Source: an uncultured virus (IMG/VR IMGVR_UViG_3300001486_000425) (Duplodnaviria > Heunggongvirae > Uroviricota > Caudoviricetes). Taken from it: 64,000 bases of DNA. The position numbers were made by a program, and so were the translations under genes. Location of the stretch: the IMG/VR virus record IMGVR_UViG_3300001486_000425. The stretch is one strand, 5' to 3'. Shown here in pieces: positions 1 through 13,549 of the stretch (position 1 is its first letter; each line of letters opens with the position of its first letter). The notes beneath the pieces are model-generated. The model was not told where the DNA came from and ran no database searches. It worked only from the letters and a program-made list of their open reading frames with translations.

Positions 1-281
1 AATTAGACCATTCAGATACTCAGAAAAACCTCCTTACCAGGAGAAAATGAGACGAGCCGATACAACTTTTAAAATCCCATAGAAAAACTCCCATACTATG
101 AGAATCAGTGATTGACACTATCCGACTTATTATAGGGATAGAAAAACTTCCTAAAAAAGGAAACATTTTGCTGAGTTAAAATATGAAACTCCGGCAAAGA
201 AAAACTTCCATCTATATGGAAACTATCCTCTGAGAATGTCGAAGATAATATCCGACATTGAAAAACCTATATCAAATTGCT
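1..281 (-). CRISPR. Type I-E-like CRISPR array with divergent repeats (5 repeat units, continues off the window edge)
   Basis: Repeats start on + at 22, 81, 140, 198, 259 (period 58-61 nt). On the minus strand four read stem-loop + GTTTTTCT (e.g. GTTTCCATATAGATGGAAGTTTTTCT); the fifth ends GTTTTTCA and overlaps the cas6 stop. Spacers are 31-34 nt. Directly downstream of cas6e. Confidence 0.88.
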
Positions 282-856
282 TTTAAAAGTAATAAACCTA
301 ATCCATAATTCTTAAACCTTCCAACACCATTTTCAATCATTTCTTGCGCTTGTTCAATATTATTAATTTGAATTTTACCTCTAAATGTAGAAGTAGGAAT
401 ATTTTTTACTTTATCTTTGTCAAATATAATATCTGTTTGTCTATATTCTGTACATTCCAATAAATCAATATTATATTTATTGAATTGACGTTGTAACCAT
501 AAATAACGGTCATTAATATCTTTTAAGAAATATCTCTTATCATCATGGGTTTTACATGGGAAGACCTGGAGATCAAATTGATATATTCCTGTATTTGTAA
601 TATCATTTTCAAATTCTTTAACTAATTCAAATCCATATTTTTCAATATTTGTTAAATTAAATTTATCTTTTGATTGAATATACATATAGATTTCATCATT
701 TCTAGAAATAATCTTATAAAGAATTTTACCTTCAGCTCTATGTGTATCTTGTTGTTCAGTTAACCATTTATGAACTGAATTAGAACTATTAATGTCTAAT
801 AGATCTGTGGCAGATAAAATAGATGGTCTAGTCATCTTAAGCACAGTCATGTACAT
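272..856 (-). CDS. cas6e: Cas6e (Cse3) crRNA-processing endoribonuclease
   Basis: C-terminal glycine-rich loop GVGRFKNYGLGLLLL; N-terminal MYMTVLK...VHKWL...YIQS pattern; last gene of the operon. Confidence 0.9.
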   Translation of the reverse strand: MYMTVLKMTRPSILSATDLLDINSSNSVHKWLTEQQDTHRAEGKILYKIISRNDEIYMYIQSKDKFNLTNIEKYGFELVKEFENDITNTGIYQFDLQVFPCKTHDDKRYFLKDINDRYLWLQRQFNKYNIDLLECTEYRQTDIIFDKDKVKNIPTSTFRGKIQINNIEQAQEMIENGVGRFKNYGLGLLLLKAI

Positions 857-1382
857 TCTTAAGTTCCTCCTTCTTAATTAACTTAAATTCTGTTACTATA
901 GGTTTATTAGGTACGCAACTTCTCTTTCCAATAAATAATGAATAAACTGGATTTTGAATTGCATCATATAATTCTTTTAATAGCTCATCAGAACCACCTA
1001 TAAAAATTTCATATTCTGCATCTTGTAAAAATTGAACTTTTTTACATAAAGAACCATCTCTATATTTACCTTCAACAGTTTGAAATGTATTTCGTTTATT
1101 AAATTTATTCATATAATTCTTTTGACTTTTAAGAGGTCTTATTGTTTGAAAATCATTTAAAATAATTGGTTCTTCAATAATAGAATACTTAACGTCAATA
1201 TTATTAAAAAGTTCTTTACTTCTAACATCATTTCTTTCATATCCTAAAGCAGAAGCTAACATACCAACTATAGCTTTTTTTGTTGGATATAATGAAGTAT
1301 TATAAGTTGTTCTTAAAGCAATAGAATCTGAGTCAGAAAAATATTGTAAGACTCCAGATAATGTTAACTTTAAATAATTCAT
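837..1382 (-). CDS. cas5e: Cas5e Cascade subunit (181 aa, no HNH fusion)
   Basis: LKLTLSGVLQYF...PTKKAIVGMLASALGYER and LFIGKRSCVP match Cas5e motifs. Confidence 0.93.
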   Translation of the reverse strand: MNYLKLTLSGVLQYFSDSDSIALRTTYNTSLYPTKKAIVGMLASALGYERNDVRSKELFNNIDVKYSIIEEPIILNDFQTIRPLKSQKNYMNKFNKRNTFQTVEGKYRDGSLCKKVQFLQDAEYEIFIGGSDELLKELYDAIQNPVYSLFIGKRSCVPNKPIVTEFKLIKKEELKNVHDCA

Positions 1383-1394
1383 TTATTATACCTC

Positions 1395-2624
1395 TTAGAT
1401 TAATGCAGAAACTGCCTTCTTTAATACCGTTTCAAGTTCATCAAGACTTGTAATCTGCTTAGCATCCTTAAATAATTTTGCAGCATCCTCAAAATCACTA
1501 CCAAACATTACAAATTGCTGAATCTTACCAGATCTAAATGTCTTATTATTTGCAAACTTACTAAGCTTTTCTACAGCTTGCTCTGAAATTGTTTTTTCAT
1601 TTGTTGCAGTAATTACCTTACTCCAATCAGGTTGTAAGTTAGAACCATCTTCAATAAGTTCAATAAGAATTGCAGTAGGCTCAACACAAGAAGCAGATCT
1701 ATTCTGAGTTGCTTCAGGTACCATTGCAATCATTGATTTAGTAAAATCAATAACAGAATTTACAAGAGTTTCTTTTGTATCTTTATTAGGCGAATATATT
1801 CTAGGATATACAAAAGTATTAAGATTTCTCTCAAATTCCTTAAGGTTAATATTTGCGTAAGAGTACATCAAATTAGAATATAATGAAAGACCTTGGTTAA
1901 TTGTTTCACCATTAGATTTTGCACTTTCTGTATTATTAAAATTATCATACGCACCAAAGAATGGATCTGAAGAATCAGCACCAGATCTACCTACAAATTT
2001 AACTGTAAAGAAGTCAGATTCAGGAAGATATGCATCTACTGAATAAGCTTGGCCCATCTGTAAAGCACCATCAACTGTACCAAGTACACCATCAGTTGCC
2101 ATTGTACCAAACAAAGACTTTGCAACTGAAAGATTTACATCATTAAGAGCAGCAGTCTTAGCAACCTTTTCAATATTTGTTTTATCAAGTTTCTTTACAC
2201 CATTTTCTTTTACAAAGTCAATAAAAGCAGCAATAAGAGCATCAATTTCTGCAGCATTTGTAGTAACTACAACTCGATTGATTTTCTTATCATAACGTCC
2301 CATAATAGTTTCCCATTGATTAGGATCTACACCAATAACTTCCTTAGAACAAATTGCCTTACCAATTGCATCTTTTTCGTCTGCAGTAATAGTCTTATCT
2401 GCAACCTTAACATCAAGACAATCTGAAATAAGCTTTTCAATCTGAGTTGTTCTAATCTCATCACAAGCCATCAATTCTCTAATTGCTCTCTTTTGACACT
2501 GTGATGAAAATCTAACTCTATTTACTCCACCAACTGTAATCTGCTTTGCTTCTCCATCTTCACCTCTATTAAAGGTACCAGGATTATAATGCTTAAGTAA
2601 ATGTACTGCTATAAAATTTCCCAT
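1395..2624 (-). CDS. cas7e: Cas7e (Cse4) Cascade backbone
   Basis: FNRGEDGEAKQITVGGVNRVRFSSQCQKRAIR, SLFGTM, VDGALQMGQAYSV, ESDFFTV. Confidence 0.95.
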   Translation of the reverse strand: MGNFIAVHLLKHYNPGTFNRGEDGEAKQITVGGVNRVRFSSQCQKRAIRELMACDEIRTTQIEKLISDCLDVKVADKTITADEKDAIGKAICSKEVIGVDPNQWETIMGRYDKKINRVVVTTNAAEIDALIAAFIDFVKENGVKKLDKTNIEKVAKTAALNDVNLSVAKSLFGTMATDGVLGTVDGALQMGQAYSVDAYLPESDFFTVKFVGRSGADSSDPFFGAYDNFNNTESAKSNGETINQGLSLYSNLMYSYANINLKEFERNLNTFVYPRIYSPNKDTKETLVNSVIDFTKSMIAMVPEATQNRSASCVEPTAILIELIEDGSNLQPDWSKVITATNEKTISEQAVEKLSKFANNKTFRSGKIQQFVMFGSDFEDAAKLFKDAKQITSLDELETVLKKAVSALI

Positions 2625-2644: not shown

Positions 2645-3151
2645 TTACTCCTCAGTTTCAAAATCTGCTCTAGCAATTGCCATTGCCCATTTCATTTTTA
2701 CACTATTATTAGCATTCCAATATTTTAAATCTTTATATAACTTAATATAATCAAATTGTTCAAATGGTTGTAAGCAAGATATTGCTTTTCGTGCTAAAGT
2801 ATAAAATCTTTTTGCAAAATAACCATCATTATCATATCTAAGTTTCAAAAACTTTTCAATTTCTTCAGGTCTATGAACTCTTGCTAATACATCTTCAAAT
2901 CTAACATAAGTTGGTCTTTCTTGCCCAGGTCTAATAGAATTATAACAAAGACCAGCAATTAAAAATTCAATATTTTGATCAATTGGATTTTTATTTTGTG
3001 ATAACTTAGTATATGCAATTAATGCATCCATATCACAAGTTTGTAATGTTTGACCAAATGATCTTTTAATTGGATAATAACTTGATGAATTTGCATAACC
3101 AAGCATATTTGAGAAAAACTTTGTATCAAGATTCTCTGCCATTATTATCAT
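2645..3151 (-). CDS. cas11: Cas11 (Cse2) small subunit; true start probably MAENL at 3142
   Basis: Position between cas8e and cas7e; DYIKLYKDLKYWN...VKMKWA C-terminal pattern. Confidence 0.8.
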   Translation of the reverse strand: MIIMAENLDTKFFSNMLGYANSSSYYPIKRSFGQTLQTCDMDALIAYTKLSQNKNPIDQNIEFLIAGLCYNSIRPGQERPTYVRFEDVLARVHRPEEIEKFLKLRYDNDGYFAKRFYTLARKAISCLQPFEQFDYIKLYKDLKYWNANNSVKMKWAMAIARADFETEE

Positions 3152-4673
3152 TTCCTTCCTTTAATTTATTTAAACTTCCGCAAAATTTTCTATACGCTTC
3201 AGCATATTTAAGTGGATTATTTGTTACTGCTTCTAACTTTTTAACTACTTTCTTTGCATCATCTATAAATAATTTTGTTACTTCATCTATATAACCTTTT
3301 TTATTTATGTTTTCAATAAATGTTGTAAAGAAATAATTCTCAGCATTCTTTGCAAACAATAATTTTATATCTTCAAGACTTGATTTATTTATTCCAGAAT
3401 CATTAAAGATTGCAAATTTAGATTGTATTTTATTAAACATATTTTGGAATTCAACTGCAATTTCATGATTCTTTTCTTTTTGAAGTTTATTAAGAATGCC
3501 TTTCTCTACATTATACTTACCAAAAGATAATACATTAGATTTCATTCCATCATATTGTCTATAATAAATTATTGACTTTACATTATCATTTGCTTGAAAA
3601 TCACTTGAGAATAAATTACATATAAAACCTTCATTATTCTTTTGTGTAATTTCAATACAAAGATTTATAAGTTTTAATGTATTATTCCACTCTTTATAAC
3701 TCCAAGTACCAACTTCTGTTTTCTTATCTATAACATATTTCTTTATTGCCCAAGGATTTGTATATGCATAACTACTACTTATACTATTTCTTGTTTCTGC
3801 ATCAAATATATCATAATTCGTTTTTCCAGCACTAATAGATTTAGCAAGTAAAATATTTTTTACTTCCTTATCATACTGTATATAAATTGGATATGGAAAA
3901 TAAGTACACAGAAGAACATTTTTATAAATGTCACCTGTATCATAATCTAATAATTCATCAAAATTATTAAATTCCCAAATAGGTTTATCATAAATTGTAC
4001 CTTGTTCACTATCTCTTAAAGGTAAGCAATTTGCAATAATAGTTTCTTTAAGATTTTTACCATAATTTAATATAAACAATGTTGCATTTGCACTCATTGC
4101 TTTATATGGATATTGTGCTGCCATTGGAGATGTTCCAAGTGTTCTAAGGTACAACAAAATATATACTAATTCATCTGCTTCAGGCTTAAAATCAACTAAA
4201 TCTGTTTTTGAAGCTGAATTATGTTCAAATATAAGATTATTTCCGCCTGGAGCTAAAAGACTTGATTTTGAAATAAAACTTAAATCTTCTTTACTATCTT
4301 CTTTAATTTCATTCTTTAATCTAATATCTTGTAAAAATGGATATTTGTTGTCAAAAAGATTAAATCTCTTTTCCCATTTATCAAAATAATCATTAATAAC
4401 TTTAAGATCCCAACCTTTTTCAGTTAATTCTTTATTAAAATATTTATCTGCAGCCTTAAACTTATTCTTAGGCTTAAAATATGCAGACAATAAAAGAATA
4501 CAAAGAAACTGAATAACTGGTACATCATATAAACTTACAGTTGTACCATGAAATGTAGGTGTTTCAATATTCTTAATTTTTTCAGCGTCTTGAAATGCCT
4601 GTCTAACAGATATTTGCCTTACTTTTCCAGTATTATATTTAACAAATAACCAATCGTCATTTAATATATTCAT
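3126..4673 (-). CDS. cas8e: Cas8e (Cse1) large subunit
   Basis: MNILNDDWLFVK...ISVRQAF N-terminus; YFDKWEKRFNLFDNKYPFLQ motif. Confidence 0.92.
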   Translation of the reverse strand: MNILNDDWLFVKYNTGKVRQISVRQAFQDAEKIKNIETPTFHGTTVSLYDVPVIQFLCILLLSAYFKPKNKFKAADKYFNKELTEKGWDLKVINDYFDKWEKRFNLFDNKYPFLQDIRLKNEIKEDSKEDLSFISKSSLLAPGGNNLIFEHNSASKTDLVDFKPEADELVYILLYLRTLGTSPMAAQYPYKAMSANATLFILNYGKNLKETIIANCLPLRDSEQGTIYDKPIWEFNNFDELLDYDTGDIYKNVLLCTYFPYPIYIQYDKEVKNILLAKSISAGKTNYDIFDAETRNSISSSYAYTNPWAIKKYVIDKKTEVGTWSYKEWNNTLKLINLCIEITQKNNEGFICNLFSSDFQANDNVKSIIYYRQYDGMKSNVLSFGKYNVEKGILNKLQKEKNHEIAVEFQNMFNKIQSKFAIFNDSGINKSSLEDIKLLFAKNAENYFFTTFIENINKKGYIDEVTKLFIDDAKKVVKKLEAVTNNPLKYAEAYRKFCGSLNKLKEGNDNNGRES

Positions 4674-4701: not shown

Positions 4702-4737
4702 AGTATAAATAAATAGGTTTTTATAAAATCCCATGTT
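4702..4737 (-). promoter_or_regulatory. Putative cas operon promoter (CTATTTATT-TATACT, 4716-4702) with a partial protospacer (4734-4721) and AAC PAM (4737-4735)
   Basis: Same motif as other intergenic promoters; 13/14 match to the 5' end of spacer 80-49. Confidence 0.7.
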
Positions 4738-4764
4738 TATAATACTAATAATAAGAAAAAATTT

Positions 4765-5424
4765 TTATTTATTCAAAGCAGGAGCTGAAGAAATTTCATT
4801 TGTATAAGCAGGAACTTTAAGAATTACATTTTTATCACTTATACTAATTGTATAATTCATATCATTTTTTGTAATAACAACATCTCTTTGCTTTTCATCA
4901 GAATCATAAGAGTTTGAAATTACAGAAAATCCAAGCTTCTGATACCTATTAAGCGCAGTTGAGAATAATTCCTTTGCATTACTTTCTTCATCAAATTTAA
5001 TAGATACTGTAGCGGTTGTCTTTGTTGAATAACTCATCTTACTTTCTTCAGAACCTAATGCAATATATACATCAACATATTCAATATACTGCTTACTATC
5101 TTTTATTTCAAATTCCCAATAAAAATCAGTTGTACTAATATCACTTATTTCTTCAGGCTGACAAACAAATCTATTCATATAATCTTGTCTAGACATATCA
5201 TTAGGAAAATATCCAGTCTTCCAAATATTATCAAATACCTGATTTGCAGATAATCCTTCAAGATTGATATATGTAGAATATTTTGTAATAGGTTTTGATG
5301 TTGTAGTTACAATTGCAGAAGTATTATCTGAAGTTACAGTTGTAGACTCATTTGTAGACTGCTTGCAACTTGTTAAAAATAACATAGTACTTGCTAAAAG
5401 TACTGCAATTATCTTATTTTTCAT
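4765..5424 (-). CDS. Putative lipoprotein
   Basis: Basic/hydrophobic signal peptide, lipobox LTSC, Ser/Thr-rich linker. Confidence 0.75.
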   Translation of the reverse strand: MKNKIIAVLLASTMLFLTSCKQSTNESTTVTSDNTSAIVTTTSKPITKYSTYINLEGLSANQVFDNIWKTGYFPNDMSRQDYMNRFVCQPEEISDISTTDFYWEFEIKDSKQYIEYVDVYIALGSEESKMSYSTKTTATVSIKFDEESNAKELFSTALNRYQKLGFSVISNSYDSDEKQRDVVITKNDMNYTISISDKNVILKVPAYTNEISSAPALNK

Positions 5425-5573: not shown

Positions 5574-5879
5574 TTAGCTCTTCTTTGCAGTAGAAGCTTT
5601 CTGAATCGGCTTCTTAACTGAAGACTTCTTAGCAGCTTCCTTAGCTGGAACCTTCTTAACAGCCTCTGCCTTCTCAAGCTCCTTAACCTTAGCGAGTGCA
5701 GCCTTCTCAACAGCCTTAGTCTTCTTCAACTTATCTGTTGCCTTTGCAAGATCTGCCTTTGCCTTTGCGATTGCCTTGTCTGCAGCCTTTACGTCTGCTG
5801 ATGCCTTCTTAGCTGCAATCTTTGCCTTTGCAAGAGGCGAAATCTTCTTTACTGCCTTCTTTTCAGTATTCTCTGCCAT
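5574..5879 (-). CDS. Lys/Ala-rich histone H1-like basic protein
   Basis: KKAVKK/AKAK/EAAKK composition; RBS GAAAGGA before ATG at 5879. Confidence 0.65.
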   Translation of the reverse strand: MAENTEKKAVKKISPLAKAKIAAKKASADVKAADKAIAKAKADLAKATDKLKKTKAVEKAALAKVKELEKAEAVKKVPAKEAAKKSSVKKPIQKASTAKKS

Positions 5880-12403: not shown

Positions 12404-13549
12404 TTATATTTGCTTTTTTGGATGTATTGTATTCCAGACATATTTAAAGAATATATCTTTATTTAACATAATTTGATCATATACATCAACTTTAATTTCT
12501 TTTGGATCTCTTTTTGATGGTGGCCAATCAGAAATAATTACTTCCCATTCACATTTAGACCAATAATAATACATTAAAGTAGTATTAAATTTTTTACAAA
12601 ATTCATCATAATCTTTAATTTTTTTATCAAGCTTTTTTAGATCTTCCATTACACCATAATGATTAAAAATATTAAATTTTTTAATACTATTACCGTTAAG
12701 ATCTTCACAATATACATACCATTCTAATTTATCAAATTTAGACATATAAATTACCTCCTATTTATTTATAATACATTTTTATTATAATGTAAATAAATAA
12801 AAATTATCAACTGCATTCAATACATCTTTTGGATATTTTATACTATGTATAACTTCATCATAATCATAAGAATTAACTATTATATTAAGTCCATTTTCAT
12901 ATGTTAATAATACATAAGGTCCTTTAAATGTCATAGCAACATTTGGTTTATACATAGTTACTGTATTTGCTATTTTTGGATTTTTGTCTATTAAATCGAA
13001 AAATTGAGAAACAAATTTTATTTCATCATATTTATTAGACATAATAATCTCCTTAAAATTTTATTTTTATTGTTTAATTTCCATACTAACCCTCCATTTA
13101 CATAGAGACTAGTATCTTTATCGGTGTAGACTTGCCTGCGCCTGAATAACCTAAATTTTGTATTTTTTTACGTGCTTTTGAATTTGATCTCTAATAGACG
13201 AATTCTTATAATCGCTACTATTTTGATCATACCAAATGTAATCAAGTATTTTGTTTGAAATGTATAAATTATCATCAATCTTTGTATATACATCTCTTCC
13301 GCCAAAATTTAATATATCTTCGTCAAAACCATCAACTGTTAATAATATTCTTACACCAAAAGCACAAAGAGTATTTGCAAAACAATTATCATCTTTTTCA
13401 TTAAAATAACCTGAATTCGCTACTACCGGAGCAAATTCAGAATTTGATTGATTACTTTGAAGCCAAAATGCATCACCACTAAAAGGTATTACGTCTTTAT
13501 ACTTCATATATTGTTCAATTGTAAGTAATTCAGCTGAAATTATTTGCAT
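12404..13549 (-). other. Hypothetical CDSs 12404-12745 (YYWSKCEWE phage-type motif), 12782-13042, 13151-13549 (DUF6273-like)
   Basis: ORFs with RBS; LLTIEQY...FWLQS...GVR pattern in the last. Confidence 0.7.
13106..13172 (-). pseudogene. Remnant of a P-loop NTPase/kinase N-terminus
   Basis: A frame without a start codon reads RKKIQNLGYSGAGKSTPIKILVSM*. Confidence 0.45.

Follow-up and report, generated by a model that had tools for sequence, protein, structure and literature searches.

A leaderless phage CRISPR array of unlike repeats that probably encodes a fixed set of guides

Directly behind cas6e in the genome of an uncultured virus of the Caudoviricetes lies a row of hairpins that all differ in sequence, each followed by a short handle, and the question raised by this locus is whether it is a decayed CRISPR array or still a source of crRNAs. 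The first-pass annotation had favoured an old array that is no longer extended by Cas1–Cas2 and is retained for Cas6 processing, that is, a fixed guide set. The window, the whole stretch of 64,000 nucleotides that was analysed (G+C 27%), is the reverse strand of bases 182179–246178 of a virus record of 467,383 bp, which has direct terminal repeats and is rated complete. The features discussed below are collected in Table 1.

The array contains five guide units of 58–61 nt each on the minus strand of the window, directly after cas6e, with handle-to-handle steps of 61, 58, 59, 59 and 61 nt. It continues past the window edge, the remainder of spacer S5, repeat R5 and the terminal GTTTACAT occupying genome bases 246179–246218. 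The four stems, loops and handles originally reported are exactly as given, and the proposed minus-strand orientation holds: the U·G pair of R3 would become A/C if the opposite strand were read, and the cas genes and every model hit point the same way. The absence of a leader is likewise confirmed, the first handle starting 5 nt after the cas6e stop codon. Two claims stand only in part. No two repeats are identical, as stated, but two C-G pairs and a flanking T are common to them; the handle, described as invariant, is GTTTTTCT in the four internal copies of the array, but GTTATTCY alternates are found elsewhere in the genome. The annotation had not included the part of the array past the window edge, the hairpin-less first unit, a spacer that looks self-regulating, the presence of a Cas2–Cas3 fusion or the about ten other loci of this kind in the genome. 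The first unit opens with the handle-only element R0, whose fold reaches −0.5 kcal/mol; the homologous element in L006, one of the related loci described below, retains a hairpin. The spacers are mutually unrelated (mean 9.1/32 identical).

Table 1. Features of the array, the adjoining cas genes and related elements (window coordinates)
Feature	Position	Strand	Description
Spacer S5	1..21 (first 21 nt)	−	last 11 nt beyond the window edge; paralogue C4, orthologue L6b4
R5	17–40 nt beyond window base 1		hairpin CTCCAA-GTAA-TTGGAG, then terminal deviant GTTTACAT
R4	22..43	−	hairpin CTCCT-GGTA-AGGAG + GTTTTTCT; covariance model 26.7 bits, E 1.8e-4, outside training set
Spacer S4	49..80	−	candidate self-regulating guide; orthologue of L006 guide L6b2
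R3	81..103	−	hairpin TCTCAT-AGT-ATGGGA, one U·G pair, + GTTTTTCT; unreported by the model at E ≤ 1
Spacer S3	108..139	−	
R2	140..162	−	hairpin TTCCT-TTTTT-AGGAA + GTTTTTCT; model 15.5 bits, E 0.28
Spacer S2	166..197	−	
R1	198..221	−	hairpin TTCCAT-ATAG-ATGGAA + GTTTTTCT; model 34.1 bits, in training set
Spacer S1	227..258	−	32 nt; L006 orthologue not detected
R0	259..266	−	handle-only GTTTTTCA at 266–259, 5 nt past the cas6e stop, no upstream hairpin
cas6e	272..856	−	194 aa; Pfam PF08798, E 2e-18; stop codon at 272–274
cas5e	837..1382	−	181 aa; Pfam/NCBIfam profile matches
cas7e	1395..2624	−	409 aa; Pfam/NCBIfam profile matches
cas11/cse2	2645..3151	−	168 aa; weak PF09485 match, 22.8 bits (cut-off 24.6), and operon position
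cas8e/cse1	3126..4673	−	515 aa; Pfam/NCBIfam profile matches
S4 partial target	4721..4737	−	AAC + ATGGGATTTTATAA, 48–61 nt upstream of the cas8e start codon
Sigma-70-like promoter	4748..4776	−	TTGAAT-17-TATTAT, just upstream of the S4 target; 9/12, consensus match only
Unit J	13084..13150	−	handle-only GTTATTCA, 32-nt spacer, hairpin CTCTAT-GTAA-ATGGAG, degenerate GGTTAGTA; 19.6 bits, E 0.02

Three further observations concern single elements of the array. The terminal GTTTACAT (L003:913–941, outside the window next to its base 1) contains the −35 box of an 11/12 sigma-70-like promoter, TTTACA-17-TATAAT, before cas2-3, and in our own reading L006 keeps TTTACT-17-TATAAT at about 5665–5700; a −35 box in this place would account for a terminal handle that is both deviant and conserved. 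Spacer S2 and a spacer from another locus, E1 (genome 432994–433025), contain a similar internal inverted repeat (GAGTTT...AAACTC, then AG), though not in the same register, and a hairpin-like motif may be common to their targets. In S2, a contig from a close relative, sequenced at low depth, differs at two positions, including seed position 5; this may be error.

The genes are arranged in the order cas8e-cas11-cas7-cas5-cas6e, followed by the array and then by a cas2-cas3 fusion. Against the Pfam type I-E families, four of the five Cascade proteins score above the cut-off and Cse2 slightly below, and all NCBIfam I-E equivalogs are below their cut-offs (Cas6e against TIGR01907, 41.9 bits for a cut-off of 45.2), which marks the system as a divergent type I-E member. 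Cas6e aligns to solved Cas6e/Cse3 chains across its C-terminal glycine-rich part; among 45 Cas6e homologues the glycine-rich C-terminal loop is conserved and His29, which we take to be the catalytic histidine, is invariant. The fusion protein (903 aa) starts 53 bases past the array, outside the window, and comprises a type I-E Cas2 domain (PF09707), an HD domain (Cas3_HD, 1.1e-24) and a helicase (cas3_core, 5.2e-50). Cas2 is found solely as this domain at the N-terminus of Cas3, and the complete genome has no Cas1 match to PF01867, TIGR03638 or TIGR00287. The Cascade genes and the Cas3 HD and helicase domains of a type I-E system are therefore present, and the Cas1–Cas2 adaptation module is absent. 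Compared with L006, the six cas genes have dN/dS values of 0.08–0.20 (0.19 for Cas2–Cas3), with 44–66% of synonymous sites differing, which is near saturation.

Two candidates concerning adaptation were rejected. The 266-aa gene after cas2-3 is not a hidden Cas1, being lipoprotein-like and having a homologue upstream of cas8e in L006 (40% identical; L006:3–776), and the Cas2 domain is not a degenerate mark of lost adaptation, being full-length and conserved. Lipoprotein-like genes, with a signal peptide containing Cys, are present on both flanks of the cas locus (window 4765–5424, minus strand, and L003:3780–4580).

The arrangement exceeds what chance would give: GTTTTTCT occurs 16 times on the array strand of the 467,383 bp against about 11 expected, and four of the 16 copies are those of the array, at 58–59-nt steps. 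When the stem pairs were tabulated by script (loop lengths differ between repeats), all 28 of the 28 pairs in R1–R5 were standard, and four of the six pair positions had changes on both sides, U-A/C-G at pair positions 1 and 2 and A-U/U-A at positions 5 and 6. At the family level, 66/66 cells pair in 11 repeat variants, four of six pairs are double-changed, and none of 500 shuffles reached as high a value. Among 142 cells in an alignment of 26 model hits, pairing holds in 97.9% and double changes occur in 15; this alignment was fitted to the model, and two of its rows are probably noise. These compensatory stem changes support the original proposal that hairpin and handle are under selection. 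In comparison with a standard CRISPR array, near-identical repeats and a leader are absent, and a regular 58–61-nt period and unique spacers are present. The structure and handle of a putative Cas6e substrate are present, the hairpin running directly into the 8-nt handle, and cleavage would be predicted at the 3′ base of the stem. As had been expected, the array escapes repeat-based tools: TRF returned no rows and Rfam no matches, both serving as proxies for CRISPR finders. A terminator scan flags R4 and R5, and plain intrinsic terminators were considered and rejected in view of the 59–61-nt period, of a handle lying past the T run and of the model hits.

Fifty-one Cas6e homologues were found in the protein collection, 50 of them at 50–98% identity and some on contigs of 350–530 kb. 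The relatives compared at the locus level are six metagenome loci; viral_contigs and genome_contigs contained none. The four relatives whose sequence extends far enough share this gene order, and in each the array lies between cas6e and cas2-3. In two of them, L007 (Cas6e 61% identical) and L009 (52%), the array is uniform, with about 20 and 15 repeats, respectively, and a strict 61-nt period. The repeat is 28–29 nt long and consists of GTTTTCTCTGCGTAAGCGGAG or GTTTACTCTGCRTATGCAGAG followed by GTTATTCY, and a conserved leader of ~80 nt follows cas6e, where the studied array has none. Since these uniform, leader-bearing arrays occupy the same place, the studied array is the derived, leaderless form. 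Compensatory stem changes are already present in the trailer-end repeats of L007. In L006 (Cas6e 75%), two unlike repeats and one spacer follow cas6e, and a second array of about ten unlike repeats lies right after cas2-3; homology of S1–S5 to the single cas6e-adjacent spacer of L006 was not significant and was rejected. In L008 (56%), one solitary repeat follows cas6e and Cas3 starts at the HD domain, without a Cas2 domain (L008:768–1115), which looks like a further step of reduction. The proposal that the array is no longer extended agrees with all of this: the complete genome has no Cas1, the array has no leader, and no two repeats are identical genome-wide. Four sequencing runs yielded DNA contigs from a close relative, all short and of low depth, together with two unrelated pieces from the RNA runs, and none of this material bore on transcription or processing.

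Two peculiarities of L006 are recorded here in their own right. Before its S5 orthologue there is a 12-nt tandem duplication of GGAG and the handle GTTATTCA (L006:8669–8692), which brings that unit to 70 nt. Its post-cas3 array is followed by a SIR2-family gene (L006:9116–9895; E 1.7e-50) that has no counterpart at this place in the studied genome.

A covariance model trained on the repeats of the relatives together with R1 and R5 was run over the whole genome, an extension that the first-pass annotation had suggested, and it located about ten further loci of the same kind. The best 24 hits (E up to 1.6) are all on the coding strand, below which noise appears on both strands; this bias mainly reflects co-orientation with transcription, because 562 of the 569 ORFs of at least 80 aa genome-wide lie on the same strand, the minus strand of the window. 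Model and script scans together gave 12 loci, all intergenic, with roughly 23 guide units of 57–63 nt, plus one of 48 nt; three hairpins outside the array are imperfect or missing. Six of the 12 loci start 1–10 nt past an upstream stop codon, and six (the studied array, F, I, J, K and E) open with a hairpin-less handle. Every locus closes with a hairpin followed by a degenerate handle. Locus K lies directly after cas2-3, and unit J carries a single guide between two genes, beginning 1 nt past the upstream stop codon. What persists at these loci, handle, guide and hairpin, is the content of a mature type I-E crRNA, and the accessible text on CreR describes the same conservation rule of an upstream handle and a downstream hairpin (10.1101/2023.03.10.532045). 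Boxes resembling −10 elements are found just upstream of several loci. The solitary units H and G and the hit at genome 94096 may well be terminators.

Eight of the 12 repeat loci lie between 18 kb and 55 kb of the genome. At genome 54644–54656, at the end of the ORF upstream of the solitary repeat G, 13 letters equal the start of spacer C4 with an ATT flank, a match that is by estimate not significant alone.

Three guides of this genome have orthologues in L006, namely D3 (27/32 identical to L6b8), S4 (25/32, 78%, to L6b2) and S5 (24/32, 75%, to L6b4), against a background spacer identity of 9.3 ± 3.3 of 32. For S1–S3, three of the five spacers of the array, no L006 orthologue was detectable. 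Paralogous guides also exist within the genome (S5/C4, 23/32; D1/F1, 24/32). Over these five pairs, the differences fall on every sixth position (17/25 differ, against 0–28% in the other five registers), and comparison of sixth positions with odd multiples of three (P = 0.005) argues against a plain codon-wobble pattern, with the reservation that S5 is a member of two of the five pairs, which are thus not fully independent. According to the accessible text of PMC10120712, Cascade reads its guide in a 5+1 manner in which every sixth position is unread. Conserved guides, changes at sixth positions and saturated synonymous sites in the cas genes together indicate that the guides are kept by selection at the positions read by Cascade. 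The notion of a fixed guide set is thereby strengthened, S4 and S5 being orthologous in a phage at near-saturated cas divergence.

For one of the spacers a candidate target was found in the phage's own genome. The first 14 nt of S4 match window 4734–4721 at 13 positions, with a mismatch at position 12 and an AAC flank, inside the 91-nt intergenic region upstream of cas8e. Across the whole genome, none of the five spacers has a better seed match. Ten of the 39,979 mock spacers did equally well in that region, none of 40,000 shuffles of S4 did so, and after correction for five spacers P is about 1e-3. ATGGGATTTTA has three occurrences in the genome. In L006 the orthologous guide is ATGGGACTTTA, and AAT followed by ATGGGACTTTA stands at the homologous site, which precedes cas8e by 64 nt: guide and promoter site are both ATGGGAC... 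there and both ATGGGAT... here, within flanks that are barely alignable. The same letter has changed in guide and site, so that guide and target covary. In E. coli, the last letter of the repeat comes from the PAM; if the same holds here, the C/T with which repeats of the uniform arrays end agrees with the AAY flank. S4 thus has the sequence hallmark of CreR-type RNAs, a match that is confined to the seed and lies in the effector-operon promoter beside a putative PAM, and it appears to be a guide that turns down the CRISPR genes of the phage itself. Conservation of S4 extends over its whole length, more than self-repression through 14 nt would explain.

The other target searches were negative. 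With blastn, the whole array gave chance AT-rich matches only against phages and plasmids. Searches of the large collections covered the S5, C4 and D3 guides: the first 24 nt of S5 had no match in viral_contigs or genome_contigs, the first 24 nt of C4 had none, and the D3 and S5 guide-family patterns with N at the sixth positions had none either. A near-full guide match was found neither in the phage's own genome nor in the available DNA of the relatives compared, and S4 alone has a seed match at a meaningful place.

Taken together, these results probably describe a true crRNA-coding array, belonging to a Cas1-less system of type I-E-like build that the phage itself carries, with fixed guides among which S4 would be self-regulating. 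Having ceased to grow, such an array would have been worn down to the parts of the mature crRNA, the 8-nt 5′ handle, the 32-nt guide and the Cas6e hairpin. Its transcription would accompany or closely follow that of the cas operon, Cas6e would cut each hairpin at its 3′ base, and Cascade would load the resulting RNAs of ~59–61 nt; with no hairpin upstream of it, the first guide would owe its 5′ end either to trimming or to a transcription start close by. S4 would pair through its first 14 nt with the site beside AAC at the cas8e promoter and, the match being only partial, would repress its own cas operon without Cas3 recruitment, like the CreR/CreA RNAs. The remaining guides, here and in the about ten cassettes, would be inherited and conserved, and their targets would most likely be conserved host or rival-phage sequences, cut or silenced with Cas2–3. 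Some observations run against this explanation: units are 58–61 nt long rather than the strict 61 nt of the relatives, the closing pair varies (U-A or C-G), and S4 is the only guide with a target, itself a 14-nt seed match.

If the array were instead a dead relic, decaying neutrally since the loss of acquisition and without working guides, the missing leader and Cas1, the hairpin-less first unit, the degenerate last handle, the drift of unit lengths between 58 and 61 nt and the failure to find protospacers would all be natural, and L008, down to one solitary repeat and without a Cas2 domain, would be a case further along. Neutral decay, however, would break stems, yet double changes have left all 28 pairs intact; the sequence of all four internal handles is the same, purifying selection acts on the cas genes, and S4 and S5 retain 78% and 75% identity with L006, changing at sixth positions, over a distance at which 44–66% of synonymous cas sites differ. 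We therefore regard a relic as quite improbable. A purely regulatory set, in which all guides act through short matches to phage or host promoters, as in a multiplexed CreR/crlRNA, and never by cleavage, would fit the S4 promoter match and the lack of any near-full self-match in the genome, and the accessible text of PMC10120712 and 10.1101/2023.03.10.532045 describes degenerate mini-arrays of like build as regulators. It is nevertheless unlikely, though less so than a relic, given that no guide but S4 has its seed match in a meaningful location, that the guides are conserved over all 32 nt, well beyond the seed, and that selection (dN/dS 0.19) maintains a Cas2–Cas3 whose HD and helicase domains are intact. 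The least probable reading, and a very improbable one, takes the units as decoy or hijacking RNAs directed against a host type I-E system (Racr/Cracr-like) and not as guides serving the Cascade that the phage encodes. Hijacking of host Cas proteins by phage crlRNA arrays of up to three spacers is described in 10.1101/2024.10.29.618823, but here the cognate cas operon adjoins the array, the repeats belong to the family found in the arrays of this phage clade, and S4 both matches and covaries with the cas8e promoter of the phage itself. The guides may have such a role in addition.

Among known systems, the canonical type I-E of E. coli and Thermus thermophilus (Cascade, Cas6e) has the same five Cascade families in the same order, a Cas3 with HD and helicase domains and a repeat made of a hairpin and an 8-nt handle; the 61-nt period of the relatives and the sixth-position pattern, which fits 5+1 reading, belong to the same likeness. 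Unlike it, the phage has no Cas1, a fused Cas2–Cas3, an array placed between cas6e and cas3 that is leaderless and built of non-identical repeats, and guides spread over about ten loci. In type I-F systems, Cas2 is fused to the N-terminus of Cas3 as it is here, but the Cas2 domain of the phage is of the I-E family PF09707. CRISPR-associated transposons carry fixed guides between divergent repeats, as this array does, but no transposase context was seen.

The regulatory mini-arrays of the CreR/CreA type repress cas promoters (Shmakov et al. 2023, PMC10120712; 10.1101/2023.03.10.532045). As they are described in the accessible portions of these sources, their degenerate repeats keep the 5′ handle and the 3′ hairpin, their stem-loops persist while the letters vary, and a seed of 10–15 nt matches the cas8/casA promoter beside a PAM, with a mismatch at a sixth position; in all this they resemble the phage array and S4. 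According to the available text of PMC10120712, they are one-spacer elements beside a normal cellular array, at least three repeats occurring in 12 cases, whereas S4 is one of five guides in the only cas-adjacent array of a phage whose genome has no normal array. Phage crlRNA (Cracr) arrays, viral mini-arrays and solitary repeat units are similarly short, leaderless and multiplexed (10.1101/2024.10.29.618823; PMC11656645). The same sources, so far as accessible, have Cracr arrays using host Cas proteins and copying host repeats; this phage has its own Cascade and Cas2–3, and, unlike those of Cracr arrays as described there, its guides are conserved between phage lineages.

Cas1-less CRISPR systems of jumbo phages are known from the accessible text of PMC11656645 and PMC13037316, and they share with the present case a phage of more than 200 kb, an effector module, short arrays and the lack of Cas1. 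In those same texts, as available, heterogeneous repeats, dispersed cassettes, a self-targeting guide and orthologous guides are not mentioned for jumbo phages. The accessible parts of the literature, leaving aside supplements that may list one, contain no phage with its own type I-E system in which all arrays have heterogeneous repeats, and, again apart from supplements, no such arrays over about ten loci, no lineage-orthologous guides and no embedded CreR-like guide. A natural set of different hairpins, if they are indeed accepted by one Cas6e, would be a ready-made design for non-repetitive multiplex guide arrays, and sixth-position differences between orthologous guides are a purely comparative signature of Cascade use that could be applied to other genomes. 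Jumbo-phage CRISPR-Cas systems without adaptation genes were reportedly described by Al-Shayeb et al. in 2020.

In broader terms, the array is what remains when acquisition stops but use continues: only the letters of the mature crRNA survive, and stem letters can vary so long as both partners change together. Repeat-based finders would probably overlook such arrays, and the guide sets of phages and mobile elements may therefore be widely under-counted. The S4 case, as far as sequence can tell, would extend CreR-type self-repression to a phage-borne system. It is possible, and we propose it tentatively, that this phage clade has turned adaptive immunity into an inherited, hard-wired RNA-guided toolkit, in which S4 throttles the phage's own Cascade and the rest are directed at conserved sequences of hosts or rivals. 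Repeat heterogeneity may then be favoured, because identical repeats would let recombination delete irreplaceable guides. If this is true, about two dozen guides would be carried in intergenic cassettes of phage operons, inherited vertically and retained over the time in which synonymous sites saturate, with only the unread sixth positions and the paired letters of the stems left to drift.
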